Source: Trueperaceae bacterium
GTDB lineage: Bacteria; Deinococcota; Deinococci; Deinococcales; Trueperaceae
DNA: 64,000 nucleotides
Reading direction: 5' to 3'
Assembly (NCBI GenBank): GCA_035703635.1
Contig: DASSXV010000005.1
Coordinates: 1 to 64,000, forward strand
Shown: positions 1,681 through 50,258 of the stretch, one piece after another
How the letters are laid out: every line of letters begins with the position of its first letter
How positions within the stretch are numbered: the first letter of the stretch is position 1
Translations under genes and position numbers: made by a program
The notes under the pieces: model-generated
What the model saw: only the letters and a program-made list of their open reading frames with translations
What the model was told of the DNA's origin: nothing
The model's database searches: none

Positions 1681-1703
1681 TAGGAGAGGAGTCGTGAATA
1701 CCG

Positions 1704-3310: not shown

Positions 3311-3429
3311 TCCTGAAGGATAATTACTTGCTATGACAGGGCTCTGACCACCCACGCGAGCATTGCCATACCTGGATCGCCCTAGACAAGGTTGTGTGAG
3401 TTCACCAAAGCCGCACGATTAGCCTTGAC

Positions 3430-3458
3430 TTGACCGGCGATTTGATGGGTGGCATGAT
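3430..3458 (+). promoter_or_regulatory. Candidate late promoter
   Basis: TTGACC-17 nt-CATGAT upstream of a terminator and terL. Confidence 0.45.
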
Positions 3459-3482
3459 GCTAGGTAGCACTTCTGACTCAAG

Positions 3483-3516
3483 ACCCCGCCGTCCCCCCAC
3501 GGCGGGGTTTCTCTTT
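3483..3516 (+). terminator. Intrinsic terminator
   Basis: ACCCCGCCGT/ACGGCGGGGT 10-bp stem followed by TTCTCTTT. Confidence 0.8.
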
Positions 3517-3571
3517 GCGGGGTGAGGGTGGCCCTCACCGGCGCTCATACCGCCGGTCCGCTCGAGAAGTT

Positions 3572-3787
3572 CTATTCGCCGTCGAGCTTATCGGCTGGGT
3601 AAAGCCTGAAGGTGATGCTGTATGGCGGCCTACTGGGATGATAGTCCCACCGTTCGAAACCAATAACCCTGTAATGGGCGCCTTGATACTCAATTGTTGA
3701 CTGGTTCCTCAAGGCAGTTGCAAGCATCGACCGATGCTCTTCAGAAGTGGCCGTGACCTTTTGGACTAGCGACTTATCGAGGTCCAC
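3572..3787 (-). CDS. Small antisense hypothetical protein (71 aa)
   Basis: Strong GAAAGGAG RBS before the GTG; AT-richer than the flanks; composition unlike a shadow ORF. Confidence 0.6.
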   Translation of the reverse strand: MDLDKSLVQKVTATSEEHRSMLATALRNQSTIEYQGAHYRVIGFERWDYHPSRPPYSITFRLYPADKLDGE

Positions 3788-3826
3788 GAGCGGAACTCCT
3801 TTCAGGCCACGCGATCTCTAGAGAGG

Positions 3827-5236: not shown

Positions 5237-5258
5237 CCCCCGAGAGAGGAGGTGCACC

Positions 5259-6593: not shown

Positions 6594-7408
6594 CCCCGCC
6601 GCTGCACCTACTCCCACCGGACCCGGACCTAGGCCAAGTGGCGTTCGCTGCTGGGCGCGCCTGGCGGTACACCGTCAAGGGCTGGACCCACCAACAGCTC
6701 TCGGCACTCGGCACCCGCGCCGAGTGGCTCGCCCTCGGATTGCAACTCGATGTGGCCTTCCGCCGCCACGCAACGGCCGCCGAAGTCATCACGAAGGCCA
6801 TCGCGTCAGGCAACCTCGCCGCGCTGCGCCTCTACCTGGCACGCGCCCACCTTGACGGGCGGAAGGTCGCTCGGCTCCTGCAGGGCGGGTACCTGCGCGT
6901 CAGTCCCTACCTCGACCGCCGCACCGCCGCTCGGTGGCTGGAAAGCGGTCAACTCTACAGCCAAGCGATAGCCAACCGCCTCGAGGCCGCACGCGTCGAA
7001 CGCACGACGTTCCTGCAGCTCCGCTCGTGGGTCGTGAACTCGGGGCAGCAGGCCGTCTGGGCCGGGCACGACGCCGAAGCAGACGAGGTCGCCACCCTAG
7101 CCGAGGCCGAGTACAAGACCTGGGTTAGAGCCTGGCCACGCCAACGGCGCCGCGACTGGCACGATCGCCTCGAAGGCGTCAGCATCCCCATTGACACCGA
7201 CTTCGTCCTCCCTGACGGTCCGAACGCCGGGCGGCGCATCACTGGACCGCGGGCGTGGGATGACGTGGATGACCCCGCGGAGTGGATGAACTGCGGCCAC
7301 GCGCTTCGGTTCGAGAAGGTGCTGACCCGCGAGCAGGCCGAGCCGGCGCTGCGCGGCCGCAGCATCCTCTACGACCCCAGGCCAAAACAAAGACCCCCAG
7401 CCAACTAG
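6590..7408 (+). CDS. Head morphogenesis / minor capsid protein (Mu gpF-like)
   Basis: KTW..R.RDWHDRLEGVSIPIDTDF..EWMNCGH C-terminal motif; follows the portal. Confidence 0.75.
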   Translation: MTPPLHLLPPDPDLGQVAFAAGRAWRYTVKGWTHQQLSALGTRAEWLALGLQLDVAFRRHATAAEVITKAIASGNLAALRLYLARAHLDGRKVARLLQGGYLRVSPYLDRRTAARWLESGQLYSQAIANRLEAARVERTTFLQLRSWVVNSGQQAVWAGHDAEADEVATLAEAEYKTWVRAWPRQRRRDWHDRLEGVSIPIDTDFVLPDGPNAGRRITGPRAWDDVDDPAEWMNCGHALRFEKVLTREQAEPALRGRSILYDPRPKQRPPAN

Positions 7409-7458
7409 GGCCATCTCGTGGACCACCCGCTCACGTCCCTAAACTGCGCCGAGCCGGA

Positions 7459-8028
7459 ATGCCAGAGGACCAGAACATCACGCCCGTCGACAGCGGAGAT
7501 GCCGACAACACGCCCCCCGTAGCGGTAACAGCGGGAACCACGCCCACTCCCGGGGGCGGCAATGAGACGCAAGTGGACATCGACAAGATCGTCCAGAAAC
7601 GCCTCGATCGGGAACGCAAGAAGTGGGAAGCCGACGCCGAGGAGAGAGCCAAACGCGCCCGCATGGACGAAGCCGACCGCCTCAAGGCCGAACTGGCCGA
7701 CAAGGACAAGGAGATCGCCGCAGCCAAAGCCGACGCCATCAAGGCCCGGCAGGTCGCCGCGCTCACCGGACGGGTCGTCGACGCCGAGGACGCACTCGCG
7801 ATCGCCGAGCGAGCCGGGCTCGTCGACGACGACGGCACGGTCAACCTCGACGAGCTCCTCAAGACCAAGCCGTACCTCGCCGCCAGCGACATGGGCGGCC
7901 GGTCGACCACGCCGGCAGCGAACGCCGCGCGGCTCGCCAACGGCACCAAGCCCCTCACCCCGGACGACTTCCGGGGGAAGGACCCGGCCTGGATCGACGC
8001 CAACCTGCACCGCCTAGCCAAACCGTAA
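7459..8028 (+). CDS. Capsid scaffolding protein
   Basis: DIDKIVQKRLDRERKK charged helix and LLKTKPYL; precedes the capsid gene; start placed at ATG 7459. Confidence 0.8.
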   Translation: MPEDQNITPVDSGDADNTPPVAVTAGTTPTPGGGNETQVDIDKIVQKRLDRERKKWEADAEERAKRARMDEADRLKAELADKDKEIAAAKADAIKARQVAALTGRVVDAEDALAIAERAGLVDDDGTVNLDELLKTKPYLAASDMGGRSTTPAANAARLANGTKPLTPDDFRGKDPAWIDANLHRLAKP

Positions 8029-12570: not shown

Positions 12571-15525
12571 GTGGCTAGCACGCTCGAGACGCTCGTGATC
12601 AAGCTCACGGCCGATGCTCGCCTCCTCGAGGCCGAGCTTGACAAGCAAGTCACCAAGGCCGAACGTTCCGGAAAACGCATCGAAAGCGCATTCAGTTCCG
12701 GCCTGAAGTTCGCTGGCGCCATCGGCATCGCCGCGACCGGCCTGGCGACCGGCCTGACTGCGGCCGCGCAACGCGCCGCCACCTACGCCGACGAGATCGA
12801 CCAGGCTGCCATCAAGACGCGCCTGGCACGCTCCACCGTCCAAGAACTACGGTACGCGACGGACCAGGCAGGCGGCAGTTGGGCCGCCGTTGAGAGCAAC
12901 GTGCGGGCGTTCACCGGCCGCATTGTCGAACTTGAGCGCGGCAGCGATCGCGCCGCAGCCACGTTCGCAGGCATCGGCGTCAGCGCCTACGACACCGGCG
13001 GTAAGCTCCGCGCCACCGAGGACGTGCTGCTAGACACGCTGCATGCCCTCGCAGGCATCAAGAACGAGAGCGAGCGCGCAGCACGAACCGTTGAAGTGTT
13101 CGGGCAGTCCGGCACGGACCTGCTGCCGCTCCTATCCGTCGGCGCCTCGGGTATTGAAGAGTTGCGCTCGAAGGCCCACGAGCTTGGCCTGGTACTGGAC
13201 GACCAGAGCATCGGAGCCCTCGTCACGTACAAGTCGGAGATCAGCCGCGTTCAGCAGCAGGTTGGTGCGCTCGGTCGTGAGTTCACCGTGGCACTCATGC
13301 CGATCCTGACAGGCGGCGTCCTGCCCGCCCTGCAGTCGGGCCTTGACCTGTTCCGCGCCTTACCGCAGCCCGTCAAGGAGTTCGGCGCCGTCACGGGGAC
13401 GGCCGCTGTCGGAGTCGGCGCCCTCGCAGCAGCGTTGAGGCTCGTGGGCATCTCCGCCGCGCCGCTTCTCGGACCAGCCGGGATGTTCCTCGTCGCAGCA
13501 GCTGGCCTGGGGTACCTGGTCACCAAGTTCGTCGAGGCGGACGGGCCGCTGAAGGAGCACAAGACTCACATCGATGAACTCCGGCAGGCGTACGAGGAGT
13601 ACCGCGGTGAGATCAACGTCACGACGGACGCCGAGCGCGAGGGTGCCATCGCGCGGCTGCAGACCATCCGCAGCGAGATGCTCGAGCGAGTCAGGCTCCT
13701 GCGCGAGTTGGCGAACGAGCAGAAGCAGAGCGTGCAGGGTTTCCTGAACAGCCCAATCGGGAAGTTCCTCATGCCGGGATTCCTCAACGTGGAGGCGTCC
13801 GCGGGTTACGGGACGCTCGCTGAGATCGACAAGCTCGAGGGCACCATCGCGAGTCTCGGGAGTGACATCAAGGCGCTGCAGAGCGGCGCGACGGGCTTCG
13901 GGCCGGGCGTGACGCCGCCACCGCCGGGCGTGACGCCTCCGCCGGCCGGCACGACCGGCAGCGGTAGTGGTCGAGCAGTTGTGCGCACGTGGCAGATGGT
14001 CCTGGACGATCTCGACAGGGCTGGCACGGAAGCGATGCGCCGCGCGGCGTTCGAGGGCACGGACGAGGCGTTCCGCGAGGCGGCCCGGAAACGCGTCACT
14101 CTCATCGACAACGCGATCACTGAGGCGTTGACGACGTTCTACGGGCAGGTGAGCCCGCAGGAACTGGGGGCGTTAGCTGCCCGTCGCGCCCGGGCTGAAC
14201 ACGAGGCGCGCATCCCGGTCGCCGGAGGCACTCCGCCAGACCCCGCTGGTGTCGCGGCCCTGAAGGCGCAGGCGGACGCCATCATGGCGGACACTCTCCA
14301 AGCGAACCGTGACGCGCGTCTCCAAGAACTCAGGGAGACGCTGGCGCAGAACAGCGCCTTGCGCCAACAGGCGCTGGCCATCATGGCGGACACGAGCCAG
14401 GCGCAGGCTGACGCTCGCGCGGCCGAGGAAGCGCAACGCGCCTACATCGACTCCTTGGCTGATAGCGGCGGCGAACTTGGCCGGTGGTTGGCCACCGCTA
14501 ACAACCTGACGGCGACCATCAAGTCTGCGAATGACGAGACGGCGCGCATGGGCGTGTTCGCTGACGCCCTGGCCAAGTACGGCTCGGGTCGAGCTGGTCT
14601 CGCTGGCACTAGCGCCGCCGACCGCGGCAGCCTGCCATCACTCACCAGCCGTGGCGCCGCCGCCGACCTAGCCCGCGATACCGTCCTTGCCGTCGTCGAC
14701 GCGTACCACGCTGGCGCCGCGACACTGGACGACGTTCGCGTGGCGGTCGAGGCGTGGACGAGCATCACTCCCCAGACCGTCAAGGCGATCAATGACCTCA
14801 CGGGCGGCATCCTGCAGTTGGCCATCGAGGCTGAACGCGCGAAGCAGCAGGCCGCGGCGCTGGCCGAGTTCGAGAGCAACCCGGGACTGTACGGCCTGCG
14901 AGACGTGCCGGGCGTCAAGGACTACTCTGCCGGCAAGGCAGTCGAGGCGCGGGACGCTTGGCGCGCCCCGGGCGACATCACGGGCGGTGTGAGGCGCAGC
15001 ACCATCATCACGCGGGAGGAGGCAGAGGCGGCGCTCAGGGCTCAAGAGGCGTCAGCTGATAGGTTCGCGAGCACGGTTGTGTCGGCCGGCGCTACGTTCG
15101 CATCGGACCTCGTCTCAGCCATCCGCGACGGTGATGTCGGCGCGGCGTTCAAGTCCGCCCTGGGCTTCGGGCAGTCCGTCGTCGGCGCCGCCGACTTGGG
15201 TAGCCTGCCGTTCCTCGGCGGGAGCATCGGCATCGGCGCGTTGCTCAGCGTCGGCCTGGGTCTCATCGGCAGCCTGATCGGCGCGATCGCAGGCGGCGGG
15301 AACAGCAAGGCGAGCGACGCAACGAACGCCATCAACCGCGGCTCCGTGCCGGCCATCAACCTGAACTTCGTCGTGAACCAGTCGAACGTCTACAACGGCG
15401 CTCCAAGCGACCCTGCGAACGAGCAGGCGTTCGCGCGGCAGGCAGACGCATTGTTCGAGAGCATCTATCGTCGCTACCTAGAGGACCGCTTCCGTCGCCT
15501 CGAGGTGCGAGTGGGCATCGCATGA
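12571..15525 (+). CDS. Tape measure protein
   Basis: 984 aa, Ala-rich helical; N-terminal LETLVIKLTAD; hydrophobic segments; long single gene implies a non-contractile tail. Confidence 0.92.
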   Translation: MASTLETLVIKLTADARLLEAELDKQVTKAERSGKRIESAFSSGLKFAGAIGIAATGLATGLTAAAQRAATYADEIDQAAIKTRLARSTVQELRYATDQAGGSWAAVESNVRAFTGRIVELERGSDRAAATFAGIGVSAYDTGGKLRATEDVLLDTLHALAGIKNESERAARTVEVFGQSGTDLLPLLSVGASGIEELRSKAHELGLVLDDQSIGALVTYKSEISRVQQQVGALGREFTVALMPILTGGVLPALQSGLDLFRALPQPVKEFGAVTGTAAVGVGALAAALRLVGISAAPLLGPAGMFLVAAAGLGYLVTKFVEADGPLKEHKTHIDELRQAYEEYRGEINVTTDAEREGAIARLQTIRSEMLERVRLLRELANEQKQSVQGFLNSPIGKFLMPGFLNVEASAGYGTLAEIDKLEGTIASLGSDIKALQSGATGFGPGVTPPPPGVTPPPAGTTGSGSGRAVVRTWQMVLDDLDRAGTEAMRRAAFEGTDEAFREAARKRVTLIDNAITEALTTFYGQVSPQELGALAARRARAEHEARIPVAGGTPPDPAGVAALKAQADAIMADTLQANRDARLQELRETLAQNSALRQQALAIMADTSQAQADARAAEEAQRAYIDSLADSGGELGRWLATANNLTATIKSANDETARMGVFADALAKYGSGRAGLAGTSAADRGSLPSLTSRGAAADLARDTVLAVVDAYHAGAATLDDVRVAVEAWTSITPQTVKAINDLTGGILQLAIEAERAKQQAAALAEFESNPGLYGLRDVPGVKDYSAGKAVEARDAWRAPGDITGGVRRSTIITREEAEAALRAQEASADRFASTVVSAGATFASDLVSAIRDGDVGAAFKSALGFGQSVVGAADLGSLPFLGGSIGIGALLSVGLGLIGSLIGAIAGGGNSKASDATNAINRGSVPAINLNFVVNQSNVYNGAPSDPANEQAFARQADALFESIYRRYLEDRFRRLEVRVGIA

Positions 15526-15965
15526 GCACGACCGTCACGTTCACTAGTCCCATCAGCCCGACGGCGTTCACGGGCTTCACGCTTCAAAGCGCGGACCGGC
15601 AGGCGCTCGAGGTGTTGCGCGACGAAGGCCAAGTGCGGTACGGGTTCTCGTTCATCGGCAATAACCTGAAGGCCAGCTACGAGAAGCTCGCGCCCATCGC
15701 CGTCGTGAACCTCCTCAATGGTGCCCCCAGCATGACCCTCGATGGTCATCTGGTCGCGGCAGCCATCGGCCAGGGCGCCCTGGTGCAGGTCGCCGTTACC
15801 GGCGGCCCCACGCGAGTGGGGATCATCACGAATCTCGTCTGGCAGGTGGGCCGCGGCGGGGGGTTCGGGCAGCGCCTCGACTTCGTGCTCCACCGCTGCC
15901 ACCGACTACACGTCCGGAGCGGCGGCACCGTCACCACCAGCACAGACCCAGCGGTGAGCGGCTGA
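15522..15965 (+). CDS. Putative distal tail protein
   Basis: ATGA-coupled after the tape measure; beta-rich. Confidence 0.55.
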   Translation: MSTTVTFTSPISPTAFTGFTLQSADRQALEVLRDEGQVRYGFSFIGNNLKASYEKLAPIAVVNLLNGAPSMTLDGHLVAAAIGQGALVQVAVTGGPTRVGIITNLVWQVGRGGGFGQRLDFVLHRCHRLHVRSGGTVTTSTDPAVSG

Positions 15966-18265
15966 TGGCCGAGTACGTAGGGGGCACCAGCAACAGCTTC
16001 GGCAGCGGAACGACCATGACGCTCATCGCCCCAGGCGCTGTGCAGCCGGGCGACAAACTGTACCTGTTCGCCGCGGGACGCTCTTCGGACGCGCCGCCGG
16101 TGTGGAGTGACCCGCTCGGATGGGCGCGCGTAGACGGGAGCCTCCAGGTCCCGACCGTCACCCGTGGCGCGGCGTGGGAGCGCACCGCGCAGGCGGGCGA
16201 CGCGCTGGCTGCGGTCACTGTCGGCGCGGACCGGGGCCTCACCGCCGCCGTCGGCGTCCTGGTGGCGTTCCGCGGATACGACATGACCGTCGGCCAGTGG
16301 TTCTTCGGCGAGCAGGCACCGGTCGTCGTGCCAGTGGAGCTGGCGCCGGGCGACCTCTTCGCGGCGTTCGCGTTCTCCGCGAACAACGCGACCTCCGGCC
16401 CTCTCGACACCGACGGAGTGTTCCCGCGGCTGTTCCACCCCACCAGGGGCTTCAACCCCACCCTGCACGGCGCGTTCCTCTCCGGCCTCGCGCCGACGCC
16501 GCTCACCCAGGTGACGATCGGCCACGACATCGGCACGACATGGGCCAGCATCGGCGTGTTCGCCGTGTCGGGCGTCCCCGCCCAGAGCGCTCCGCGCATC
16601 CGCAGCAGCGTCAGTGAGGACGCGGGGAGTTTGTTTCAGGCGACTCAGGCAGCGGCCGTGGAGTTGGGCTTATCGGAAGCGTTCGAGTACGGCGCAGACA
16701 TTCCGGCTGGTCGGTTGCGGTCTTTCAGTGAGGCGCTGACCCCGGACGCAACGGCGGTCAGTTATTACCCGTTGCCGACGCGCAATCAGGAGATGCTCAC
16801 CACGGTCGAGGGCGAGACGAACCTCGGTCGGCTGGCCGGCGTCTACCCGAGCGGCATCATGGTTCCCGCCACGAGCATCCCCGGCGCGGTCGGGGGCGTC
16901 GTGACGGCGCAGCAGGCCATCCAGTACGTCACGGCTCAGTGGGCGAGCGCGCACCCCTGGCTGTCGTTCGCGCCGATTCCCGACTTGCGGTTGATGGTGC
17001 CTAGCGCCGTCGCCGCGCCCAGGCAACACTACTTGGATAACCCCGGTGACGGCGTGCTCACCACGGCGGCGGTCGTGATTCCGCAGGAGGGCAACGAGCG
17101 CCGCTCGATGCGCGAAATCCTCGACGAGTGGCTCGCGATTTTCCCCGGAACCATCGTCAGGCAGACGAGCACCGGAGTGATTGAGTTGGTGCCGCGCGTG
17201 GGGCCGGACGCACCCAGCGGGGCAGCCGTGACGCTCACGTGGGGCGACCTCACCGGCATCAGCGATGGCGAGGACGACCCGAGCGGCGTCACGAACAGGT
17301 GCCGCGTCACCAGCCAAGGATGGGAGTTCACGGACAACCAAACACTCAGGCCACCGGCGTTCGTCGTGTCAATCGGCGGGTTAGGCATCGACCGCAGCGT
17401 CCTGGATGGCGAGGCGGTCATCCCGGACGACGCGGAGGAGTTCCAGCCGTGGCGCACGATCCCGTTCACGGTGTTGGTTGACGGCGGGAACAACGTGACG
17501 GTGAACGTCGGCGTCACGGCGTTCGGGTCGTGGAACCGCGCGGCCGCCACCTCGTTCAGCGTGGAGGGCACCGCGTTCCCGAGCGTGACGTTGGCGGTAG
17601 GGCAGTCGGCGGAGGTAAGCATCACGCATACGAGCCGTGCTCTGAGTGTCACGGCCACGTGGCGACTCATGCGCGTGACGAGCGTCGCCATTGATGTCGT
17701 GCCAGTCACCGTTCCGAGTTACGCGGAGAACCCTCTGGGCCGCACTTACCTGGCGTATCTCCTGGAGTTCGACATCATTGGCACCGCCTGGGTGCGCTCG
17801 AACGAGAGCGTTACGAGCGAGTTCGGGCAGGACGGCGTGGGCATCCCGGCTGATGGCGGCGGTGACGCCATTGCTGACAGTCGCGCTCAGTACGGTGAGC
17901 GCCTCGCGCAGTTGCAGAGCAACATCTTCCAACTGACGCCCGAACAGGCGCAGGCGGCCGCGCAGTCCTACGTCTTGTGGAACGTCAATCCGCGCACCAT
18001 CCGCGACGTGCAGCAGTCGGAATGGAACAAGTTCCCGGTGCGGTTCGACCACATCGGCAGGCTCGTGGATTTGCCGACGGGCGAGAGGGCGGTCATCGAG
18101 AACCGCAGTTATAGCGATTCGTTCAGCAGTACGAGCGGGATGATGCGAAGCACCTTCTCGGCGAGCGTTACGGAGGTCGTTATCGACACGGACACTCACT
18201 GGCTCCTACTAGACGACGGTGACTGGTTCCAACTCGACTCAGGCGAGATGGTGGAGGAAAGCTGA
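15965..18265 (+). CDS. Tail tip / baseplate hub protein with an N-terminal beta-sandwich
   Basis: 766 aa; VTNRCRV and DSRAQYGER hub-like motifs; TGATG coupling. Confidence 0.7.
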   Translation: MAEYVGGTSNSFGSGTTMTLIAPGAVQPGDKLYLFAAGRSSDAPPVWSDPLGWARVDGSLQVPTVTRGAAWERTAQAGDALAAVTVGADRGLTAAVGVLVAFRGYDMTVGQWFFGEQAPVVVPVELAPGDLFAAFAFSANNATSGPLDTDGVFPRLFHPTRGFNPTLHGAFLSGLAPTPLTQVTIGHDIGTTWASIGVFAVSGVPAQSAPRIRSSVSEDAGSLFQATQAAAVELGLSEAFEYGADIPAGRLRSFSEALTPDATAVSYYPLPTRNQEMLTTVEGETNLGRLAGVYPSGIMVPATSIPGAVGGVVTAQQAIQYVTAQWASAHPWLSFAPIPDLRLMVPSAVAAPRQHYLDNPGDGVLTTAAVVIPQEGNERRSMREILDEWLAIFPGTIVRQTSTGVIELVPRVGPDAPSGAAVTLTWGDLTGISDGEDDPSGVTNRCRVTSQGWEFTDNQTLRPPAFVVSIGGLGIDRSVLDGEAVIPDDAEEFQPWRTIPFTVLVDGGNNVTVNVGVTAFGSWNRAAATSFSVEGTAFPSVTLAVGQSAEVSITHTSRALSVTATWRLMRVTSVAIDVVPVTVPSYAENPLGRTYLAYLLEFDIIGTAWVRSNESVTSEFGQDGVGIPADGGGDAIADSRAQYGERLAQLQSNIFQLTPEQAQAAAQSYVLWNVNPRTIRDVQQSEWNKFPVRFDHIGRLVDLPTGERAVIENRSYSDSFSSTSGMMRSTFSASVTEVVIDTDTHWLLLDDGDWFQLDSGEMVEES

Positions 18266-19062
18266 TGGCTAAGTGGACAAGCAAACCGATAGCAACCACC
18301 TTCGCCGACAACGACGTCGTGCTCCTCGCGGACGTTAGTGAACCCGCCGGCACGCAAGATCGACGCGCGACCCTCGCCGCGCTCCGAACGTTCTTGGGCG
18401 CGGGCATCACGGTCGGTGTGACTCAAGCAAGCCACGGCCTGTCCGTGGGCGACGTCGTCCGGTTCGATGGCACCAGTTACGTGCAGGCTACCGCCGACAC
18501 CGCCGGAAACGCGGAGGCCGTCGGAGTCGTGACCGCCGTGCCCGATAGCGGTACGTTCGCGTACCAGACGGCAGGCGTCGCCTCGACGCTCTCAGGCCTG
18601 ACGCCGGGCGAGCTGTACCACCTCAAAGACGATGGTTCGCTGGGCACCTCGGCTGGCACGGTGGACAAGCCCGTCCTCATCGCCACCAGCGCCACGACAG
18701 CCGTGCTCATCCTCGCCATCAGCGGCGCAGGCGGCGGCGGCTCCGACCCGACGCGTATCCCGAAACTTGCTGTAGTCCGCGCCTACGGTACAAGCGCCAG
18801 CCTCGACGAGGACGACGACCTCGCCGCGTACGTACGCGTCACGGCCGCGGCTACCATCACCCTCCCCGATGGTTTCCCGGCCGGTTGGCAGTGCGTGCTC
18901 GTGAACGCCACCGACAGCGACACGGTCGAGCTGGACGCCGCAACGACCCTCACCCTGCCTGCAGGTTTCGAGCCGGAGATCCAGAACCGCCGCGCAGTCA
19001 CCGTCATCCACGTCGGCAGCAACGTGTGGGAGGCGCACGGCGCCTTAGTGGAGACCCCCTAG
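18265..19062 (+). CDS. Tail fibre-like protein
   Basis: HGLSVGDVVRFDG..LSGLTPGELY module, GGGGG hinge, C-terminal ITLP..VGSNVWEAHGAL. Confidence 0.7.
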   Translation: MAKWTSKPIATTFADNDVVLLADVSEPAGTQDRRATLAALRTFLGAGITVGVTQASHGLSVGDVVRFDGTSYVQATADTAGNAEAVGVVTAVPDSGTFAYQTAGVASTLSGLTPGELYHLKDDGSLGTSAGTVDKPVLIATSATTAVLILAISGAGGGGSDPTRIPKLAVVRAYGTSASLDEDDDLAAYVRVTAAATITLPDGFPAGWQCVLVNATDSDTVELDAATTLTLPAGFEPEIQNRRAVTVIHVGSNVWEAHGALVETP

Positions 19063-19769
19063 TGTTCCCGGCGGTTCACGGGATCGCAAGCCAAGGCAAC
19101 AAGGGCGGCGCGCCCAACCCGGTGGAGTTCGGCGTGCTCGGCGTCAGCAGCGCCGGGCACGATCCCGTCGGCAGCGACCACACGGTGCCCTTGCCCGAGG
19201 GGGAGGGCGGACTCTTGGTGGTGATAGCCAAGGGCGCCGGAGGCACTCAACTGCGGTGGAGCGCGCCGGGGGGCTGGACGACTGCGGCATCGGAAGGCGA
19301 CGGCTCCACCAACTGGCCGGTCGTCGTGTTCGCGCGCATGGTTGACGGCACCGAACCGGACATCCTCACGTTCAGCACGATGAACTCCCTGGGCACCGCA
19401 CCTACGGTGGCTGGCAGCGCGCTGGTCGCGTACCGGGTGGCGGGCGCGCACGGCGCCGTGGAGGCCGCCTTCTCGTCCGTCGCGAACCCCCCGGCCCTCA
19501 CGCCCTCCTGGGGCGCCGCAGAGATCCTGTGGATTGCCGCCTTCACCAGCCGCCTGAGCAACGGCACCTTCACCGCGCCGCCAGCGAACTACGGTGGCCT
19601 CACGCCCGCGAGGAGCCCGACCATAAGCGCGACCAACACGTACGCGCAGATGGCCACGGCGCACCGCCTCCACACCGCCGCCACCGAAGACCCCGGCACA
19701 TTCGCATTCACGGGCACCACCAACGGCCTCTTCACCGCCACCATTGCCGTGCGGGCCGCCGCGCCGTGA
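19062..19769 (+). CDS. Putative receptor-binding / tail beta-sandwich protein
   Basis: GTG overlaps the upstream TAG; GLLVVIA, APGGWT, ATIAVR; last tail gene. Confidence 0.65.
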   Translation: MFPAVHGIASQGNKGGAPNPVEFGVLGVSSAGHDPVGSDHTVPLPEGEGGLLVVIAKGAGGTQLRWSAPGGWTTAASEGDGSTNWPVVVFARMVDGTEPDILTFSTMNSLGTAPTVAGSALVAYRVAGAHGAVEAAFSSVANPPALTPSWGAAEILWIAAFTSRLSNGTFTAPPANYGGLTPARSPTISATNTYAQMATAHRLHTAATEDPGTFAFTGTTNGLFTATIAVRAAAP

Positions 19770-19772
19770 ACC

Positions 19773-20408
19773 CTAAGCGGAGCGCACCAATCGGTACTCG
19801 GGCGGCGCGCCCCTCGCGACCGGCACGCGCTCCACTAGGCCCGCATCCACCGCCCGTGCCGTCGCCATCAGCACCGCGCCGCGCGTCACTCGCAAGCGCT
19901 CCTCTAGTTCGGCGGCGGTGGCTGGTCCTTGCTGCAGGCCTCGGCAGAGGCGCGCTACGGCTGGCGGCAGGTTCTCGTATGGGTCGGGCTCATGCTCCGC
20001 CAGGTGCGTCTTGGCTGTCGCCGTGAGTCGCCAATCCCTGCCCGTCTGCGTGACCAACTCTGCGGCCTTGAGGGTCTTGAGGGCGGCGCTCACAGTCTCG
20101 GGCGCACGCCCGATTGTCTCGGCCAGTTCACCGCGCGTGGCCGCTCCGCCTCGCAGCGCCGTGAGCACGAGCCGCTCGGTGGGCGTCAGGCCAGGCACGT
20201 CAGGAGCAGCAGCGGTGGCCGCCCGCTCGACCTCACCGGGCGCGGGTGCTGGCGCGTCCTCGCGCCTCACGACGAGCGCCGAGCCGACAACCTCGACGAG
20301 GAGCGTGGCGTCCAGGTCGCCGTCAGGCAGGAGCGCCGCGAGCAGGTCGCGGTCCAACAACAAGACTCTGCTGTTGCCCAGCTTCTGCAGTTTCTTACGC
20401 ACCGTCAT
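19773..20408 (-). CDS. AbrB/MazE-type swapped-hairpin domain fused to two winged-HTH domains
   Basis: N-terminal RKKLQKLGNSRVLLL; LTPTERLVL..TRGELAETIGRAPETVSAALKTL; second TAAELEERLRVTRGAV..AGLVER. Start at ATG 20408 or GTG 20426. Confidence 0.75.
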   Translation of the reverse strand: MTVRKKLQKLGNSRVLLLDRDLLAALLPDGDLDATLLVEVVGSALVVRREDAPAPAPGEVERAATAAAPDVPGLTPTERLVLTALRGGAATRGELAETIGRAPETVSAALKTLKAAELVTQTGRDWRLTATAKTHLAEHEPDPYENLPPAVARLCRGLQQGPATAAELEERLRVTRGAVLMATARAVDAGLVERVPVARGAPPEYRLVRSA

Positions 20409-20430
20409 CTGACGGGATTCTGACACGCCA

Positions 20431-20446
20431 TGTGAGGAAAATCAGA
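20431..20446. promoter_or_regulatory. CRP/FNR-family-like box
   Basis: TGTGA-GGAAAA-TCAGA, one mismatch to TGTGA-N6-TCACA, in the divergent intergenic region. Confidence 0.4.
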
Positions 20447-20567
20447 GATTCGTAAGAGCCAGGTGAGTACGCTCCTCCTCAGCCGACCGGAATCCCGGCG
20501 GTGCACTACCAGGCGACCGGACATCATTCATACTTCATCCCGGGAGCCGAATCGGAAGGAGCGCATC

Positions 20568-20954
20568 ATGCGCAACCGTAAGACGCAGGGCTTCACCCTG
20601 ATCGAGCTGCTGATCGTCATCGCGATCATCGGCATCCTCGCCGCCGTACTCATCCCCAACCTCATGAGCGCCCGCCGCACCGCCGCCACCCGCGCCGCCG
20701 ACAGCTACGTTCGTAACGTCTACACGGCTGCGCAGGCCTACCTTGCGGAAAATGTCGCTGCTGACCCGGCGACCGACGCTGTTGTAAACGCGAGCTGCGA
20801 CGGCTCTTACACCGCCGTCAACTATGGCGCCACGGGCGGTTCGGCCAACATCCTCACCGGCTGCACTGTTGCTGGGACTTCGGGTGACATTGTCGTGGCC
20901 TTCACCTATGGTCCTGGAACAACGCAAAGCGGCACCGCTGCCACGTTCCCTTAA
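20568..20954 (+). CDS. pilA: Major type IV (IVa) pilin, Thermus PilA4/Deinococcus-like, prophage-encoded
   Basis: Class III signal MRNRKTQG|FTLIELLIVIAIIGILAAVLIPNL with Glu5; 128 aa; two Cys; GGAAGGAG RBS. Confidence 0.93.
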   Translation: MRNRKTQGFTLIELLIVIAIIGILAAVLIPNLMSARRTAATRAADSYVRNVYTAAQAYLAENVAADPATDAVVNASCDGSYTAVNYGATGGSANILTGCTVAGTSGDIVVAFTYGPGTTQSGTAATFP

Positions 20955-20980
20955 GCCGTAAGTTCCCTTCGTTTGATGTT

Positions 20981-21090
20981 GGCCGCCTTTCGGGGCGGCC
21001 TTCTCTTTGACGCACCAACCTAACGCCCCCGCCTCTCGGCGGGGTTTTTCTTTGCCTCACACGCCCCGCCCAGCGCGGGGCTTTTCGTTT
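20981..21090 (+). terminator. Three consecutive intrinsic terminators
   Basis: 20981-21008 (UUCG-loop stem + TTCTCTTT), 21027-21053 (CCCCGCC/GGCGGGG + TTTTTCTTT), 21063-21090 (GCCCCGC/GCGGGGC + TTTTCGTTT). Confidence 0.85.
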
Positions 21091-21099
21091 GGAGAGGAG

Positions 21100-21597
21100 T
21101 TGGTCAACCTGACGGTGAACGAGGCCATAGTCGAGGCGGCAGTAGCAGCCGCCAACGGGCGCATCACCACCCTGCCCACCAAGCCCGGGTACTGCCTGGC
21201 GTTCGTGCGGTGCATCATCGAGCGAGCACTCTGGTCAGGGCAGTGGCAACTCTACGACCGGTTCCTGGTGGCCGGCACGAGTCGCCGCGGCGACGACCCC
21301 GCCGTGAACCTGCGGGAAGCCAAGGAGGACCCCTGGGCCGCCGACTTCGAGGCGAGCGTCAAGCGGCTGGGGTGGGCGATTCCTAGTCTGCTGCGGAAGC
21401 CGGGCGATTTGGTGTTCGATCACCGCGCGGCGGCACCCATCGGGCACGTGGGAATCCTGCTCTCGCGTGGGTTGGTGATCGAGAACATTCACCCGACTTT
21501 TCGGCCGAAGAGCATCCACTTGGGGAACAGCATCAGCATCACGCCGTTTGATGCGCGGCCGTGGACGCTCGTGGCTCGAGTGCAGCCGGACAGGTGA
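21100..21597 (+). CDS. Endolysin candidate, NlpC/P60-CHAP-like Cys-His peptidase
   Basis: GYCLAFVR, KPGDLVF, GHVGILL; start uncertain (TTG 21100 or GTG 21115), GGAGAGGAG RBS. Confidence 0.75.
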   Translation: MVNLTVNEAIVEAAVAAANGRITTLPTKPGYCLAFVRCIIERALWSGQWQLYDRFLVAGTSRRGDDPAVNLREAKEDPWAADFEASVKRLGWAIPSLLRKPGDLVFDHRAAAPIGHVGILLSRGLVIENIHPTFRPKSIHLGNSISITPFDARPWTLVARVQPDR

Positions 21598-21966
21598 GCG
21601 CTCGTTGGACAGCGTACCTGCGGCGTCGCCTCATGCGGCGCATCCCCCGCAAACCCTAGCCCAACCTGTCAGGAATCCTTACGGGTTCCCCGCCCGAGAG
21701 GAGGTGAGACCGGGCTGAAGCGACAGCCGCACGCCAGAATCCTGGCTCCAGCATGAGCGCTTTTGAGGACGGCGCTCCCCCAGAGGATGCCCAGCGGGGG
21801 AGCGCCAACCACCACTGATTGGAGGACGCCTTGACCGCAGTCAGCACCTTGATCTCGTGAGAGAGGTGGTCCAGTCTCCCGGCGCTCGGGTCACAAGCGC
21901 ACCCGCACCAACAGAGCAACCCCGCCCCCGCGCAGACAGCCGGGGGCGTTCCCAATGGAGGTAAGC

Positions 21967-22329
21967 ATGACCAAGATCATCCCCCTACTGCTCGCCCTGC
22001 TCGCTAACGTCATCGGCTTGTCCGAAGACATGCGCGACCCCGCCACGTGGGTGCTCAGCACCGGCGCGCTCGGCGCAGTCGTGTGGGCCACCGTGCAGTT
22101 CCTCAGGGCCAGCATCCTCAAGCAACTCGACGGCGTCGCCGTCATCTTCGCTAGCATCGCTGTCGGCGCTGGTTTGTCTGTCGCCCTGGGCGCAGGCGGT
22201 TACGCGGGTGTCGGCAGCACGCTGGTTGAGTGGTTGGCGTTCGGCGTGTCTGCCGGGTTCGGCGCGACGCTCCTCGATCAGGGCGCGAAGGCACTCCCAA
22301 AGCCTGGGGCGGCGCACTTGGAGAGTTGA
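21967..22329 (+). CDS. Holin-like multi-TM protein
   Basis: Several hydrophobic segments; GGAGGT RBS; lysis-module position. Confidence 0.65.
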   Translation: MTKIIPLLLALLANVIGLSEDMRDPATWVLSTGALGAVVWATVQFLRASILKQLDGVAVIFASIAVGAGLSVALGAGGYAGVGSTLVEWLAFGVSAGFGATLLDQGAKALPKPGAAHLES

Positions 22330-22722
22330 GTGCGCCGCCTGCACCCGCTCCTCATCACGATTCTCGCGACGATGTCGCTCGCGAGCGCGCAAGACGTAGA
22401 CGCTAGTCCGTCGCCCCCGTTCAGTGTTCTGGCCGGTTCGAGTATCACGTGCTCGAGCACCTGGCCGAGTGCGGTCGTGGGCTGCTTCTGGGAGCGCCCA
22501 GTCCTGGTGCTCGGCGCTCTCGAGCTAGCCGTCGGCGTGGATGCCGAGGTCGTGCTTGGCGGCCAGCTCGACGGGCACCTAGCGCCCTATGTCGTCGCTG
22601 CTTACTACGCCGACACGTGGAGCGCCTGGACGGAGGTGCGCCTACCCGAACTGGGCGGCATCAAACCCATTGGCGATAGCAACTGGTTGAGAGCCGGGTT
22701 CACCCTGAGATTTCCACCTTAG
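22330..22722 (+). CDS. Secreted beta-rich protein, possible small outer-membrane barrel subunit
   Basis: Signal peptide (ASA|QD); amphipathic strands; C-terminal LRAGFTLRF. Confidence 0.6.
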   Translation: MRRLHPLLITILATMSLASAQDVDASPSPPFSVLAGSSITCSSTWPSAVVGCFWERPVLVLGALELAVGVDAEVVLGGQLDGHLAPYVVAAYYADTWSAWTEVRLPELGGIKPIGDSNWLRAGFTLRFPP

Positions 22723-22734
22723 AGAGGAGGAGTC

Positions 22735-22827
22735 ATGGAGCACTTTTCGTTGGTCTGGTTCATCCTCGGCGCTGCCGCCGGGGCCGTGTTGACGGCCGCG
22801 CTCGGCCGCCTACGCCCACCCCGCTAA
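22735..22827 (+). CDS. 30-aa single-TM peptide, absent from the ORF track
   Basis: GAGGAGGAG RBS; MEHFSLVWFILGAAAGAVLTAALGRLRPPR. Confidence 0.6.
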   Translation: MEHFSLVWFILGAAAGAVLTAALGRLRPPR

Positions 22828-22930
22828 CCGGGGTCCACAACCAGTCGCCGGTCGCAGACAAACCGGCCGGCGACGCTATCTGACGACTCTGCCCCAACCT
22901 ATCGGGGCGCACCATCTGAGGAGATGACCC

Positions 22931-23236
22931 GTGAAGAAGAAAACCGTCCTGTTGTTCGTCGCGCTCGTACTGACCGGCGCTCTCGCTCAAGACATTTCGA
23001 CCGGGTTGGAGACCCGCCTGAGCATCGTCGAGAACCGACTGGGGAGACTAGAAGCTGACGTGTCGAGGCTCTCGGACGTGCCGGTGAGCTTGGCCCGCAT
23101 CGAGCAGAAGCTCACGGCGCTCGCGGAGAAAGCTGACGGGCAGGGGAGTGTGCTGCAGACGGTCGGGCTCGGCATCATCATGAGCGTAGTTACGGGCGTC
23201 GTCAGCTTCGGGCTGGGGCGGAAGAGTCAGAAGTGA
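22931..23236 (+). CDS. Signal peptide + coiled coil + C-terminal TM protein (XhlA- or spanin-like topology)
   Basis: ALA|QD; heptads LETRLSIVENRLGRLEADV; TM followed by RKSQK; GAGGAG RBS. Confidence 0.7.
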   Translation: MKKKTVLLFVALVLTGALAQDISTGLETRLSIVENRLGRLEADVSRLSDVPVSLARIEQKLTALAEKADGQGSVLQTVGLGIIMSVVTGVVSFGLGRKSQK

Positions 23237-23259
23237 GCCCCCGCCGGTTGGGCGGGGGC
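23237..23259. terminator. Hairpin closing the late operon
   Basis: GCCCCCGCC/GGCGGGGGC 9-bp stem between convergent genes; no U-tract. Confidence 0.55.
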
Positions 23260-23343
23260 CCGTAGCAGGCCACGCAACGCTGGCAGCAGGTCCAGCATCA
23301 GTTGCAGCGCATCTCAGCCCTGCCGGAGTGAAGCTGGCCCTGG

Positions 23344-24009
23344 TCAGTAGATCGTCTGGGTGACGTCAGCGCCCTTGGCCATCTGCCGCCTGCGATAAAT
23401 CTCTGAGTCACGGGCTGGGCGGACGATTGAGGCGTTCGGCATCCACTTGACCGCATTACGTGCTGCCTGATTGCGGGCCACGTCAGCCGGATTGGCGCCA
23501 CCGATCACCGCGAAGAGGATAATCACAAACGCGTATCGCCCGAGGGTTTGCGTGAGATCGGCAGCCCCCTTCTTGAGGTTCGGGTAGCTCAGGATGCCTA
23601 GAACTACCGCCACCATCGTCAGCAGGAGGGTGAGCCAACCTACTACGTTGACCATGTGCAGGATCGATAGGTAGAGGAGCAACCACAATCCGTAGGTGAG
23701 GAAGATGCGGCGAAGCCGCCACCCTAGACCCTGTGCCAGGAGCACGGCCTCGGAGCGGTATAGCAGCATGGTCAGGACCGTTGCGAATATGAACACCGGC
23801 GCCATTATTGACGTTGCCGTTTGCTGCGTCACGTCGTGGATGCGAAAGTAATAAAGGCCAGCGAACAGCGTCGAAGCGACGAGCACCACAATAGTGACTG
23901 CCATCCACTTCGCGAAGTACAGGACGGTCCTCCACGCGCCCCCCATCAGGAGAGGCGCCACAAACGAGCTGCCGTACAAGAATCGATGCTTGTCACTCAC
24001 TGTCGCCAC
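23344..24009 (-). CDS. Multi-pass membrane protein (prophage moron)
   Basis: About 5-6 hydrophobic segments; GAGGAG RBS; AT-richer. Confidence 0.75.
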   Translation of the reverse strand: MATVSDKHRFLYGSSFVAPLLMGGAWRTVLYFAKWMAVTIVVLVASTLFAGLYYFRIHDVTQQTATSIMAPVFIFATVLTMLLYRSEAVLLAQGLGWRLRRIFLTYGLWLLLYLSILHMVNVVGWLTLLLTMVAVVLGILSYPNLKKGAADLTQTLGRYAFVIILFAVIGGANPADVARNQAARNAVKWMPNASIVRPARDSEIYRRRQMAKGADVTQTIY

Positions 24010-24409
24010 CTCCTCGATTCGGAGTGGGAACGAAGAGCCGCCAGGTAGTTATAGCAGCCAGTCTAGCAGTTGCCAGGAGCGCCACGGTTAACCAAGCAGC
24101 TGATCCCCAAAGACCACCCTCCACGATCAATCCTCGGACAATCCGACCGGCCAGGATGTCCCCGAGGCCACCAAACACTTGATCGATACCGTCGAAGGCC
24201 CAACTGGTCGCCGTTAGGACGGCATAAATGACGACGCCGGCGACCGCAGACTCGAGGATGTTCAACACGGCGCGCCATTGAGGTGCGGATGCGGCGACGG
24301 CGCCCACGGCCCATATGCGGGGCCCGATCCGAATCACGCGCTTGCCAATTACGACTGCTACGCGCAATTCACCATCTGGTTTATTCTTCCCGTCGTTCAT
24401 CGTGCTCAA
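23993..24409 (-). CDS. Membrane protein (prophage moron)
   Basis: 2-3 hydrophobic segments; overlaps the next gene; start at 24409 or ATG 24400. Confidence 0.55.
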   Translation of the reverse strand: MSTMNDGKNKPDGELRVAVVIGKRVIRIGPRIWAVGAVAASAPQWRAVLNILESAVAGVVIYAVLTATSWAFDGIDQVFGGLGDILAGRIVRGLIVEGGLWGSAAWLTVALLATARLAAITTWRLFVPTPNRGGGDSE

Positions 24410-24609
24410 CTTGCCCCCCGGATTGTGAGTTGGTGCATTGTCGGTCAGTGGTTATCACGAAGCTCTTACGAGAGGACTGGCGGCTCCGGACCGTCCCATA
24501 GCCCCGTGCGCCGGCGGTGGCGGGTTCCGAGTATTTGGGTCCGGACGGGCCAAGAGGACCCCCGGTGCAAGCTCGTGGAGGTGCTGCTGTAGCATGCGTC
24601 TTGGTACGT

Positions 24610-24629
24610 CCTGCTACCAACCTGCTACC
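24610..24629. repeat. CCTGCTACC direct repeat (11-bp period), candidate integrase arm-type sites
   Basis: Two copies about 60-80 bp from the tRNA 3' end, on the phage side. Confidence 0.5.
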
Positions 24630-24644
24630 GAGGGCCTGAATGTT

Positions 24645-24672
24645 GAACGGCGCCTCGTTAGAAGCGCCGTTC
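24645..24672 (-). terminator. Hairpin downstream of tRNA-Arg
   Basis: GAACGGCGC/GCGCCGTTC 9-bp stem. Confidence 0.5.
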
Positions 24673-24687
24673 CCGTCGTGCTTTTCT

Positions 24688-24764
<77 letters not shown>

Positions 24765-24787
24765 ATGTTGTCACGACCTTACGGTCG

Positions 24788-24881
<94 letters not shown>

Positions 24882-24901
24882 ACGATTGCCTAACCTTACC
24901 T

Positions 24902-24991
24902 TGGCGGAGGGTGAGGGATTCGAACCCCCGGACAGGTTGCCCCGTCTGCGGTTTTCAAGACCGCCGCCTTCAACCGCTCGGCCAACCCTCC
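24902..24991 (-). tRNA. tRNA-Ser(TGA)
   Basis: Long variable arm; GCGGTCT-TGA-AAACCGC; CCA end. Confidence 0.97.
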
Positions 24992-25104
24992 GGTCAACCT
25001 GCTACCAGCTTGAAGCTTGCGGCAGCTCCCTGTCAGCCCGTCCGAACCTACCACCACTCTCCCGTGAGTGTTGCGCAGGACCGTCCGTACGGTCAGCGTT
25101 GGCA

Positions 25105-25134
25105 AGTATACGCAGGGCCTCTCGGCGCTGTCAA
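25105..25134 (-). promoter_or_regulatory. Sigma-70 promoter of the tRNA operon
   Basis: TTGACA-18 nt-TATACT on the minus strand. Confidence 0.8.
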
Positions 25135-25215
25135 CGAACGTAGGCGTCATGGCTTAGGGGTTCTCTGCGGAGGCTCACTGGCTCGGCGCGTGGCCACCTA
25201 ACTCTCAGCCGTAAT

Positions 25216-25250
25216 AGCGTGGCGCCCAGCTCAGAGCCGGGCGCCACGCT
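25216..25250. terminator. Hairpin terminator
   Basis: AGCGTGGCGCCC/GGGCGCCACGCT 12-bp stem after the 25283 stop. Confidence 0.65.
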
Positions 25251-25282
25251 TGATCGTCAGACTAGCTTGGCCTTAGCGCCGG

Positions 25283-25798
25283 TCACATCGCCGAGCCTGG
25301 CGCGCCGCCGCCTGGATCGGTTTCGGCTATGCCTACACCGCTCCCTTGGGGCGTTACGAGGTACCAGTTGCCGCCTACGCCCTGGCCGCCTGTCGCGCCG
25401 GCTGCCGTGTCTGCTGCGTAGTAGTAGAGGGGCCAACCGTTATAAGTGAGCTGGTAGCTGCCGTCTTCGCGCTTTGCCACGCCGAGGAGCTTGGCGTCCA
25501 TGGGCGCCTCCACCTGAGGCAGGCTGTTCTCATCCGCAACTAGGACGGGTGGCCAGTTGATGATGCATTGGGCATCGCAGTTGCTCACGTTGGTGGTGTC
25601 GTTCAAGAACAGGTAGAGCGATCGACCAGAGGCGTCGGTGACGTGTGCGCCGAGGTCCGCTGCCGTTGCTACTTTTAGCTCGGTCGTGGCGGGGGCTGCT
25701 TGCGCCAGAACGAAGACGCCCACCAACAACCCGAGGAGGGCGATCCCTCCCGCTAATCGACGTGGCCTGCGACCTTGTTTCGCTTGTTTCGCACTCAT
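25283..25798 (-). CDS. Secreted COG4315 repeat protein (Yx(FWY)xxD motif)
   Basis: GRSLYLFLND..C..QC..NWPP, QLTYNGWPLYYYAAD..GQGVGGNW. Confidence 0.85.
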   Translation of the reverse strand: MSAKQAKQGRRPRRLAGGIALLGLLVGVFVLAQAAPATTELKVATAADLGAHVTDASGRSLYLFLNDTTNVSNCDAQCIINWPPVLVADENSLPQVEAPMDAKLLGVAKREDGSYQLTYNGWPLYYYAADTAAGATGGQGVGGNWYLVTPQGSGVGIAETDPGGGAPGSAM

Positions 25799-47348: not shown

Positions 47349-47705
47349 GTGAGTCTCCTAGCGTGACGATGAAATAGTCGTGTTGCGTCCGCCACAACAA
47401 GCTTGAGTATAGGACGCCCTTGCGAACGGCACTGTGCTGGCGCTGCTAGCGTCCTGATTCCAATTTCTCGTCGTCGAGCTAAGAATGGGGGTTCCACGAT
47501 ACCTAGCCGGAGTTGGAACCGCTAGTGAGAGCATTTGGCCTGGCGGGTGTTTTGAGCGCGCGAGTGGGTGCGGTGGTGACTTTCCGCCGGACGCGATGTT
47601 TGGGGCCGCGGTGCTAGAGGCGGTACCGCAGGTGTGGGAGTCGGAGCGCAACTAACGACGCGTGAAGGCCAACGTCACTTGGCTTCTGCAATTTTCCCTA
47701 GCCGA

Positions 47706-50239: not shown

Positions 50240-50258
50240 GGCAGCATCGTACGTCACG

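Follow-up and report, generated by a model that had tools for sequence, protein, structure and literature searches.

A PilA4-like type IVa pilin cassette in a Trueperaceae prophage: a candidate moron for the conversion of host pili

What use might a temperate phage have for a major pilus subunit when no gene for building a pilus is seen beside it? The question is raised by the first 64,000 nucleotides of contig DASSXV010000005.1 from a Trueperaceae bacterium (GCA_035703635.1), hereafter the window, in which a prophage carries a type IV pilin gene, a divergent regulator gene and a stack of terminators between its tail module and its endolysin and holin candidates. The pilin sits in this prophage as a separate unit with terminators of its own, and we put at about even the chance that the cassette is a lysogenic-conversion moron of a temperate siphovirus of a Deinococcota host, by which the pili of that host would be re-dressed. 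On the present analysis it is plausible that the host machine takes up the phage pilin and that the filament is changed, which agrees with all that was observed and has an experimental precedent in prophage FimU of Pseudomonas (PMC12952977); the promoter of the pilin gene, its control by the regulator, its expression in the lysogen, the processing and incorporation of its product and any resulting phenotype are steps that we infer. The cassette has the following parts:

19773-20408, minus strand: divergent winged-helix regulator gene (211 amino acids in its database form; 217 if the GTG at 20426 is used)

20427-20567, no strand: divergent control region (141 bp; GC (guanine plus cytosine) content 0.58, the lowest of the neighbourhood)

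20568-20954, plus strand: prepilin gene for a PilA4-like type IVa major pilin (128 amino acids; leader of 8 amino acids, predicted cleavage after Gly8, mature form of 120 amino acids)

20981-21000, 21027-21044 and 21063-21081, plus strand: three tandem intrinsic-terminator-like hairpins with T runs, from a terminator scan

The original prediction, made from the nucleotide sequence without database searches, had described an intact type IVa pilin of 128 amino acids with its own ribosome-binding site, a disulphide pair and an N-terminus like that of Thermus PilA4 and Deinococcus major pilins, and each sequence feature so described is there, with small corrections. The frame is intact in both the list of open reading frames (ORFs) and the raw sequence (ATG at 20568, stop ending at 20954), and 6 nt separate the ATG from a Shine-Dalgarno sequence (GGAAGGAG at 20554-20561). 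A basic leader of eight residues (MRNRKTQG), with Gly at -1, is followed by FTLIELLIVIAIIGILAAVLIPNL, which carries Phe at +1, Glu5, Gly14 and Pro22 (mature numbering), and the mature pilin begins with FTLIE; leader and start together make up a class III signal. The protein matches Pfam N_methyl (5e-10), NCBIfam IV_pilin_GFxxxE (TIGR02532; 33.6 bits against a cut-off of 16.3) and the PHROG family phrog_3433 'pilin' (3.2e-10), and the top named NCBIfam models, each below its cut-off, are all for major pilins or pseudopilins (PilA_Myxo, 1.5e-13; ComGC, 2.2e-12; GspG, 2.2e-11). In a six-frame translation of the whole 64-kb window the motif G-F/x-T-L-I-E occurs once, in the pilin frame only.

By sequence, the best solved structure is 6xxd_A (E 3.7e-13), which is PilA4, from which Thermus thermophilus builds its wide pilus (PMC7203116); the alignment runs over the full length (query residues 9-126 against chain residues 1-117), and PilA5 reaches just 1.4e-3 in the same comparison. 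The AlphaFold2 (AF2) model (predicted local distance difference test (pLDDT) 86.1) has a helix at 11-61 and strands at 80-83, 86-89, 96-104, 107-114 and 124-127, and its nearest PDB folds in Foldseek are gonococcal pilin (probability 0.97, query-based template-modelling score (TMq) 0.52) followed by FimA and PAK pilin. As for the disulphide pair, both residues are present and conserved, whereas the bond itself is a prediction from the sequence: among 25 aligned family members Cys99 of the precursor is invariant and Cys77 at least 90% conserved (mature positions 91 and 69), and 38 of the first 40 homologues listed, the window's own record included, have two cysteines (one has a single cysteine). 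In sum, the window pilin is intact and of the major type, a type IVa member of the Deinococcota PilA4-like family whose head has diverged; judged by its sequence, it has every feature expected of a major type IVa pilin that can be assembled.

The divergence of the head is plain from the relatives. The homologue search with the pilin scored 8000 proteins, of which 5316 reach E <= 1e-3; the nearest of them, apart from the window's own, are 86, 73, 72 and 72% identical over their full length; where the source is named it is Trueperaceae, Oceanithermus, Meiothermus or Thermus, and the annotation is 'type II secretion system protein' or 'PilA'. The ESM Atlas neighbours are likewise Deinococcota pilin clusters. 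Residues 8-32 are invariant in the 25 aligned members, and across 119 homologues the mean identity is 0.80 for the helix (residues 9-62) and 0.29 for the head (residues 63-128). Even the four closest pilins differ in this way, with identities of 0.93-1.00 in the helix versus 0.58-0.73 in the head.

A profile scan of genome contigs with the pilin alignment, which used the generic N-terminal patterns GFTLIELLI and VIAIIGILA, gave at least 615 stretches, and the matches listed comprise 76 loci, mostly from other phyla. The only loci of the same phylum among them are one from Trueperaceae (L001, 48%) and one from a plasmid of Deinococcus radiomollis (L002, 64% over residues 1-54); close relatives and the window's own genome were not recovered among the matches listed. 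A tblastn search with 21 prophage proteins found no matches in these 76 loci. The Deinococcus radiomollis plasmid (unnamed7, 35.5 kb) carries four prepilin-type genes at 1403-7523 (N_methyl 5e-9 to 1e-5); a Wzy_C O-antigen-ligase-like gene adjoins the first of the four and a ParA-like gene lies among them, so pilin genes are mobile in Deinococcus by another route too.

The divergent regulator that had been predicted beside the pilin is present on the minus strand and has an N-terminal stretch of about 55 residues of no known family followed by two winged-helix units. The Pfam matches are MarR_2 (1.6e-13, in two stretches), HVO_A0261_N (2.4e-9), HTH_20 (4.6e-8) and HTH_5 (4.3e-7), and the ArsR/SmtB-type model NF033788 scores 8.9e-9, under its cut-off. 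The N-terminal stretch has no Pfam family at E <= 0.01; to the eye it gives the impression of a swapped hairpin of the AbrB/SpoVT type, and it is nearly identical in one homologue (P0193, 81% identity overall). The gene ends at 19773, four bases past the end of the last tail-module gene (19769). Its homologues number 35 including the window's own, and none of the other 34 lies on a contig longer than 39,863 bp. Between the regulator and pilin genes are two direct repeats of 12 nt, CAGCCGACCGGA (20480-20491) and CAGGCGACCGGA (20510-20521), 30 nt apart, which are overlapped by an imperfect palindrome of 34 nt (20487-20520). The repeats and palindrome at 20480-20521 form a candidate operator, and the divergent layout together with the repeats suggests a control region within 20427-20567.

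A moron, in papers from the Hendrix laboratory, is said to be an independent transcription unit that has been inserted among the genes of a phage and is expressed while the phage is a prophage. The pilin cassette sits between the tail module and the endolysin and holin candidates, with the tape measure and tail ORFs upstream and an NlpC/P60-fold protein and a holin-like protein downstream, which agrees with the predicted position at the junction of tail and lysis genes. The terminators foreseen downstream of the pilin are likewise there, as three tandem sites at 20981-21081; the count for the region (5 versus 3.6 +/- 2.0 in shuffles) is not significant in itself, and what stands out is that three sites fall inside 100 nt right after the pilin stop. 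The 145-nt spacer between the pilin and lysin genes has a folding energy of -59.2 kcal/mol (z -2.15). The stack may keep the transcription of a strongly expressed pilin out of the lysis genes, which would make a clear picture of a strongly expressed moron insulated from lethal neighbours. A sub-threshold Rfam match of the terminator region to a Burkholderia small RNA (31.3 bits against a gathering score of 46) was taken as chance. Direct repeats flanking the cassette amount to short, low-identity GC-rich matches and show no sign of a transposon-like insertion, and no transposase was seen near the cassette in the family scan of window proteins. As had also been claimed, no pilus-assembly genes are visible: none occurs among the 41 + 27 window proteins scanned, the early half of the prophage lying outside the window, and a host machine would therefore be needed.

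We propose that the pilin is transcribed alone from the 141-bp divergent region under the winged-helix regulator and that the three tandem terminators would halt transcription before the endolysin and holin genes. The prepilin would be inserted into the inner membrane, where the host PilD would cut after Gly8 and methylate Phe1, and the mature pilin of 120 residues would enter the pool for type IV pilus assembly by the host PilB/PilC/PilMNOPQ machine. With a helix of the family type and a different exposed head, it could yield a mixed or replaced filament with a new surface. The most likely pay-off would be that phages which adsorb to the shaft of the pilus are kept out, the phage's own relatives included, and DNA uptake, twitching and adhesion would be likely to be affected as side effects. 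Because Deinococcus strains are transformable and easily manipulated genetically, the pilin idea should be testable by ordinary assays.

Pilus interference by prophages is known from Pseudomonas, in which Tip, Aqs1 and Zip are prophage pilus blockers that act as small inhibitors of assembly proteins. Such blockers resemble the proposed system in being expressed from a prophage and in making the lysogen resistant to pilus-dependent phages, and differ from it in that they prevent normal pilus function and supply no pilus subunit (PMC12952977). A nearer likeness is offered by the FimU of F10-like Pseudomonas aeruginosa phages (P-FimU), a prophage pilus subunit encoded among virion genes without its own assembly genes, which according to Sztanko et al. 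(Cell Rep 2026, PMC12952977) joins the Pseudomonas pilus, leaves it functional and blocks tip-binding phages. The window, too, has a prophage-encoded pilus subunit without assembly genes, as far as the window reaches, the early half of the prophage lying beyond its edge. For P-FimU the host machine is reported to incorporate the subunit and phages are excluded at the level of the receptor, whereas the role of the window pilin is predicted. P-FimU is moreover a minor tip pilin, about 28-30% identical to the host FimU and encoded between the tail tube and tail chaperone genes, whereas the window pilin is of the major shaft type, is encoded between tail-tip and lysis genes, and has a divergent regulator, a terminator stack and a host of a different phylum (PMC12952977).

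Closest in kind are the phage-carried homologues of the major pilin (P-PilA). The same source describes PilA-like genes in Xylella prophages of three types (Xylella fastidiosa), about 50% identical to the host PilA and with a function that is predicted only, and in four phage groups of the NCBI collection, all non-temperate (PMC12952977). These are phages of Proteobacteria, and the main text of that paper names no Deinococcota phage. Pilin-like phage genes have also been catalogued as morons already, in the PHROG family phrog_3433 'pilin' (category moron, auxiliary metabolic gene and host takeover); the match of the window pilin to this family is limited to residues 3-62, the conserved helix, and is uninformative on the head or on phage kinship. 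Given the PilA-like phage genes (PMC12952977) and the phrog_3433 moron family, the novelty claimed by the original prediction was overrated. No report of a pilin carried by a Deinococcota prophage turned up in the literature searched.

Thermus thermophilus PilA4 is of the same size class and shares the helix at the N-terminus and a small head of beta sheet with a single disulphide, which in the window pilin is predicted. It differs in being the product of a chromosomal gene and in the placing of its disulphide (Cys89-Cys124, against cysteines at mature positions 69 and 91 in the window pilin), a spacing in which the window pilin is nearer to PilA5 (Cys60-Cys88) than to PilA4 (PMC7203116). Within the phylum, type IV pili are required by the Thermus phages YS40 and TMA (PMC12024867), and transformation of Deinococcus radiodurans needs PilD, PilB, PilT, PilQ and two pilins (PMC7314969).

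Several results weigh against the cassette being a conversion moron that acts through host pili. A sigma-70-type scan, which covered consensus sites only, found no promoter-like site in 20427-20567, so the pilin promoter is one that we infer and do not see. The structural match is weak in its E-values (best 0.09, with none of 68 Foldseek matches at E <= 0.001), and the Pfam PilA4 head domain (PF18682), matched by 15 of the 25 aligned relatives (best 5.1e-4), finds no match in the window pilin even at E <= 1; the head has diverged, and membership of the PilA4-like family therefore rests on the full-length alignment and not on that domain. The composition of the pilin gene differs only mildly from its surroundings (GC 0.630; GC at third codon positions (GC3) 0.76 versus 0.81-0.89 in the neighbours), and the gene is co-oriented with the late genes, so that expression from the late operon is possible. 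Neither host pilins nor pilD nor assembly genes were seen within the 64-kb window, and we found no pilus-dependent Deinococcus phage in the literature searched.

The distribution of the pilin also counts against it. Many relatives are on chromosomes, that is, on contigs of 0.1-2.8 Mb (among them 123 kb, 745 kb, 1.2 Mb, 2.2 Mb and 2.8 Mb), and no similar pilin was found by tblastn in the phage or plasmid collections even at E 10, a search so empty at that threshold that it is insensitive here and no evidence of absence. What can be said of the distribution of pilin, lysin and regulator rests only on the longest-contig sizes listed beside the homologues: no longest-contig size of the six closest pilins recurs among the lysin or regulator homologues, and nothing suggests that related phages conserve the cassette, with contig sizes serving as a weak clue. 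The pattern fits a chromosomal pilin family of which one copy was taken by a phage, with flanking genes that belong to phage-sized elements.

An alternative is that the cassette makes the lysogen fitter without an anti-phage role, by altering adhesion, biofilm, twitching or DNA-binding specificity. One Thermus cell builds two functionally different pili from two pilins (PMC7203116), morons often encode host fitness factors (PMC12952977), and the Deinococcus radiomollis plasmid cluster with its Wzy_C-type gene (L002) indicates that pilin genes are mobile in the genus. The sole experimental precedent for a prophage pilus component, however, is an anti-phage one (PMC12952977); we consider this explanation unlikely, and place it first among the alternatives to conversion against phages.

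Next in rank, and again unlikely, is passenger DNA, in which a host pilin, with or without the regulator, would have entered the prophage by recent illegitimate recombination or by misassembly and would be of no use to the phage. The close pilin relatives on chromosome-sized contigs, the host-like composition of the pilin and the fact that conservation of the cassette is not demonstrable among relatives of the flanking phage genes would all be expected of such a passenger. The frame and all signals are nevertheless intact, the insertion between two phage modules is clean and the terminator stack protects the lysis genes, while neither flanking direct repeats nor a transposase are seen. The homologues of the regulator, moreover, are confined to contigs no longer than 39,863 bp (the window's own aside), which looks phage- or plasmid-like and not chromosomal.

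The phage pilin might also act as a poison: once processed it would jam or cap assembly, the lysogen would lose its pili, and pilus-dependent phages and DNA uptake would be blocked. Several Pseudomonas prophage proteins do protect by preventing normal pilus function, and truncated PilA-like phage proteins of 60 residues have been proposed as possible inhibitors of assembly (PMC12952977); as type IV pilins are essential for the transformation of Deinococcus radiodurans (PMC7314969), a pilus block would keep out foreign DNA as well. The window pilin, by contrast, is full length and canonical (Glu5, Gly14, Pro22, the cysteine pair and a complete beta-sheet head), its helix is 80-100% identical to that of family members, and nothing about the protein points to a defect, which leaves this explanation improbable and third in order. 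Least probable of the four is a role in the lytic cycle, with the pilin made alongside the late genes so that the pili of the dying cell become non-receptive and progeny are spared adsorption to infected cells or debris: the pilin gene is oriented as the late operon and the PilA-like genes of the NCBI collection, all in non-temperate phages, have been read in that way (PMC12952977), but a minus-strand regulator lies between the tail genes and the pilin and three terminators precede the lysis genes, and an insulated unit therefore fits better than a member of the late operon.

The conversion moron remains the reading that we prefer, and the prophage around it is of the siphovirus type. The window opens at the small terminase gene, and the integrase, immunity and replication genes would lie beyond it. 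The remaining features that frame the cassette are:

12571-15525, plus strand: tape measure gene (PHROG 8125 best, E 1e-23; 13 families matched, 10 of the 13 named tape-measure)

15965-18265, 18265-19062 and 19062-19769, plus strand: three successive ORFs, tail-tip or fibre gene candidates by position after the tape measure

21100-21597, plus strand: endolysin candidate (165 amino acids; papain-like NlpC/P60 fold)

21967-22329, plus strand: holin candidate (small protein with several hydrophobic segments)

24688-24991, minus strand: tRNA-Arg(acg), tRNA-Ser(gct) and tRNA-Ser(tga), from the tRNA scan and Rfam

The small terminase (phrog_4044, 3.3e-39), large terminase (phrog_979, 2.1e-155) and major capsid protein (phrog_267, 2e-65) were found in the Pfam and PHROG scans together with VRR-NUC, scaffold, and head and tail completion proteins. 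The large terminase hits 1503 records of the phage collection, all at less than 60% identity (best 54.4%, a Rhizobium phage), so there is no close known phage. The lysin and the regulator have no tblastn match in either the phage or the plasmid collection, and megablast of window positions 1-24700 found nothing in the plasmid collection. A low-GC island (1704-3355; GC 0.55-0.56 against about 0.66) separates the genes for VRR-NUC and the large terminase and carries a DUF5131 gene on the plus strand (1704-2402; PADLOC PDC-M41B at 2.9e-106, also PDC-M30B at 2.1e-103) and a minus-strand gene (2396-3355; PADLOC PDC-M41A at 7.4e-81). On these matches the PDC-M41A/B genes, a candidate defence pair, are a second accessory, defence-type insert of the same prophage, which shows that this prophage does collect accessory genes.

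The three ORFs at 15965-19769 have overlapping stop and start codons (the GTG at 19062 overlaps the preceding TAG and has GGAG upstream) and would, going by gene order only, be tail-tip or fibre genes. None of them has a Pfam or PHROG family at the thresholds used, and the tail protein of 766 amino acids has no tblastn match in the phage collection. On the other side of the cassette, the lysin has weak Pfam hints (NLPC_P60, 0.047; CHAP, 0.061), and the family alignment of 35 sequences conserves Cys32 and His116 to at least 90% and Glu128 invariantly. Its AF2 model (pLDDT 95.6, predicted template-modelling score (pTM) 0.91) finds MepS/Spr, CwlO and Clostridioides difficile autolysins at the top of the Foldseek results (probability 0.97-1.00, template-modelling score about 0.45-0.50, best E 1.3e-3), and from the modelled fold and the conserved residues we take the product as a candidate endolysin. 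None of its 70 homologues is on a contig longer than 40,964 bp, and several of these contigs measure about 37-41 kb.

The 357 bp between the endolysin and holin candidates (21598-21954) contain no convincing reading frame and no Rfam match, and may hold the promoter of the lysis genes or some other element that controls them. No family of Pfam, PHROGs, NCBIfam or PADLOC is matched by the holin candidate; in the ESM Atlas the clusters closest to it are viral (85% and 100% Viruses, at scores of 0.90 and 0.88), and a further cluster (0.87) has 27% Phage_holin_5_2, which is a lead to a holin and not a test of it. Two small plus-strand genes follow, one with a signal-peptide-like start (22330-22722) and one with such a start, a heptad-like middle and a hydrophobic C-terminal segment (22931-23236); neither matches a family in the Pfam, PHROG or NCBIfam scans, and both could encode spanin-like or other envelope-disruption proteins. 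Between this lysis module and the tRNA-Arg boundary are two overlapping minus-strand genes (23344-24409; 221 and 138 amino acids, hydrophobic products, with a lower GC of 0.59) whose proteins have no family match in Pfam, PHROGs, NCBIfam or PADLOC. The stretch between the lysis module and the attachment boundary is a classic place for morons.

Only the three tRNAs exceed the Rfam gathering score in 19000-25500, and the 3' end of tRNA-Arg points toward the prophage. The tRNA-Arg region is the likely right-hand attachment boundary, a placement deduced from one side because the other attachment copy falls outside the window. Beyond the tRNAs are housekeeping genes (PGM, PolA and others), in which PolA has Taq polymerase as its best PDB match (4.6e-231) and contains a Taq-exonuclease domain, and the GC content of the window is 66%; these traits point to a member of the Deinococcota that is probably Deinococcus-like. 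Further on, an ordinary host copper-handling cluster on the minus strand (46890-50257; CopC-domain protein, ArsR-type regulator and heavy-metal P-type ATPase) is unrelated to the pilin.

Among the contig sizes, three coincide exactly between homologue sets: 2,587 bp (pilin P0098 and regulator P0193), 1,120 bp (pilin P0027 and lysin P0186) and 910 bp (P0103 and P0202). A contig of 910 bp cannot hold both genes, so the last match is certainly chance and chance matches do occur; by our own rough estimate a fraction of one such match is expected, and size coincidences are leads only. The lead of interest is that P0193, the regulator with 81% identity, and P0098 are each listed on one contig whose size is exactly 2,587 bp, with the same source for both, and so may be a regulator-pilin pair on one and the same contig. 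The leader and helix of P0098 are as in the window pilin, and its head shows little likeness. The regulator-pilin pair of the prophage might be a portable cassette that passes among Deinococcota phages and swaps the pilin head, with phage-phage competition driving the diversification of pilins, a proposal that we regard as doubtful.

If the cassette does re-dress host pili, receptor replacement by prophages would reach from the minor tip pilin of Pseudomonas to the major shaft subunit, and to a distant phylum. One gene would then tie together lysogeny, phage exclusion and natural competence, since the same machine takes up DNA. Were the cassette also portable, the prophage that carries it would set the uptake of foreign DNA by its host, type IV pilins being essential for Deinococcus transformation.

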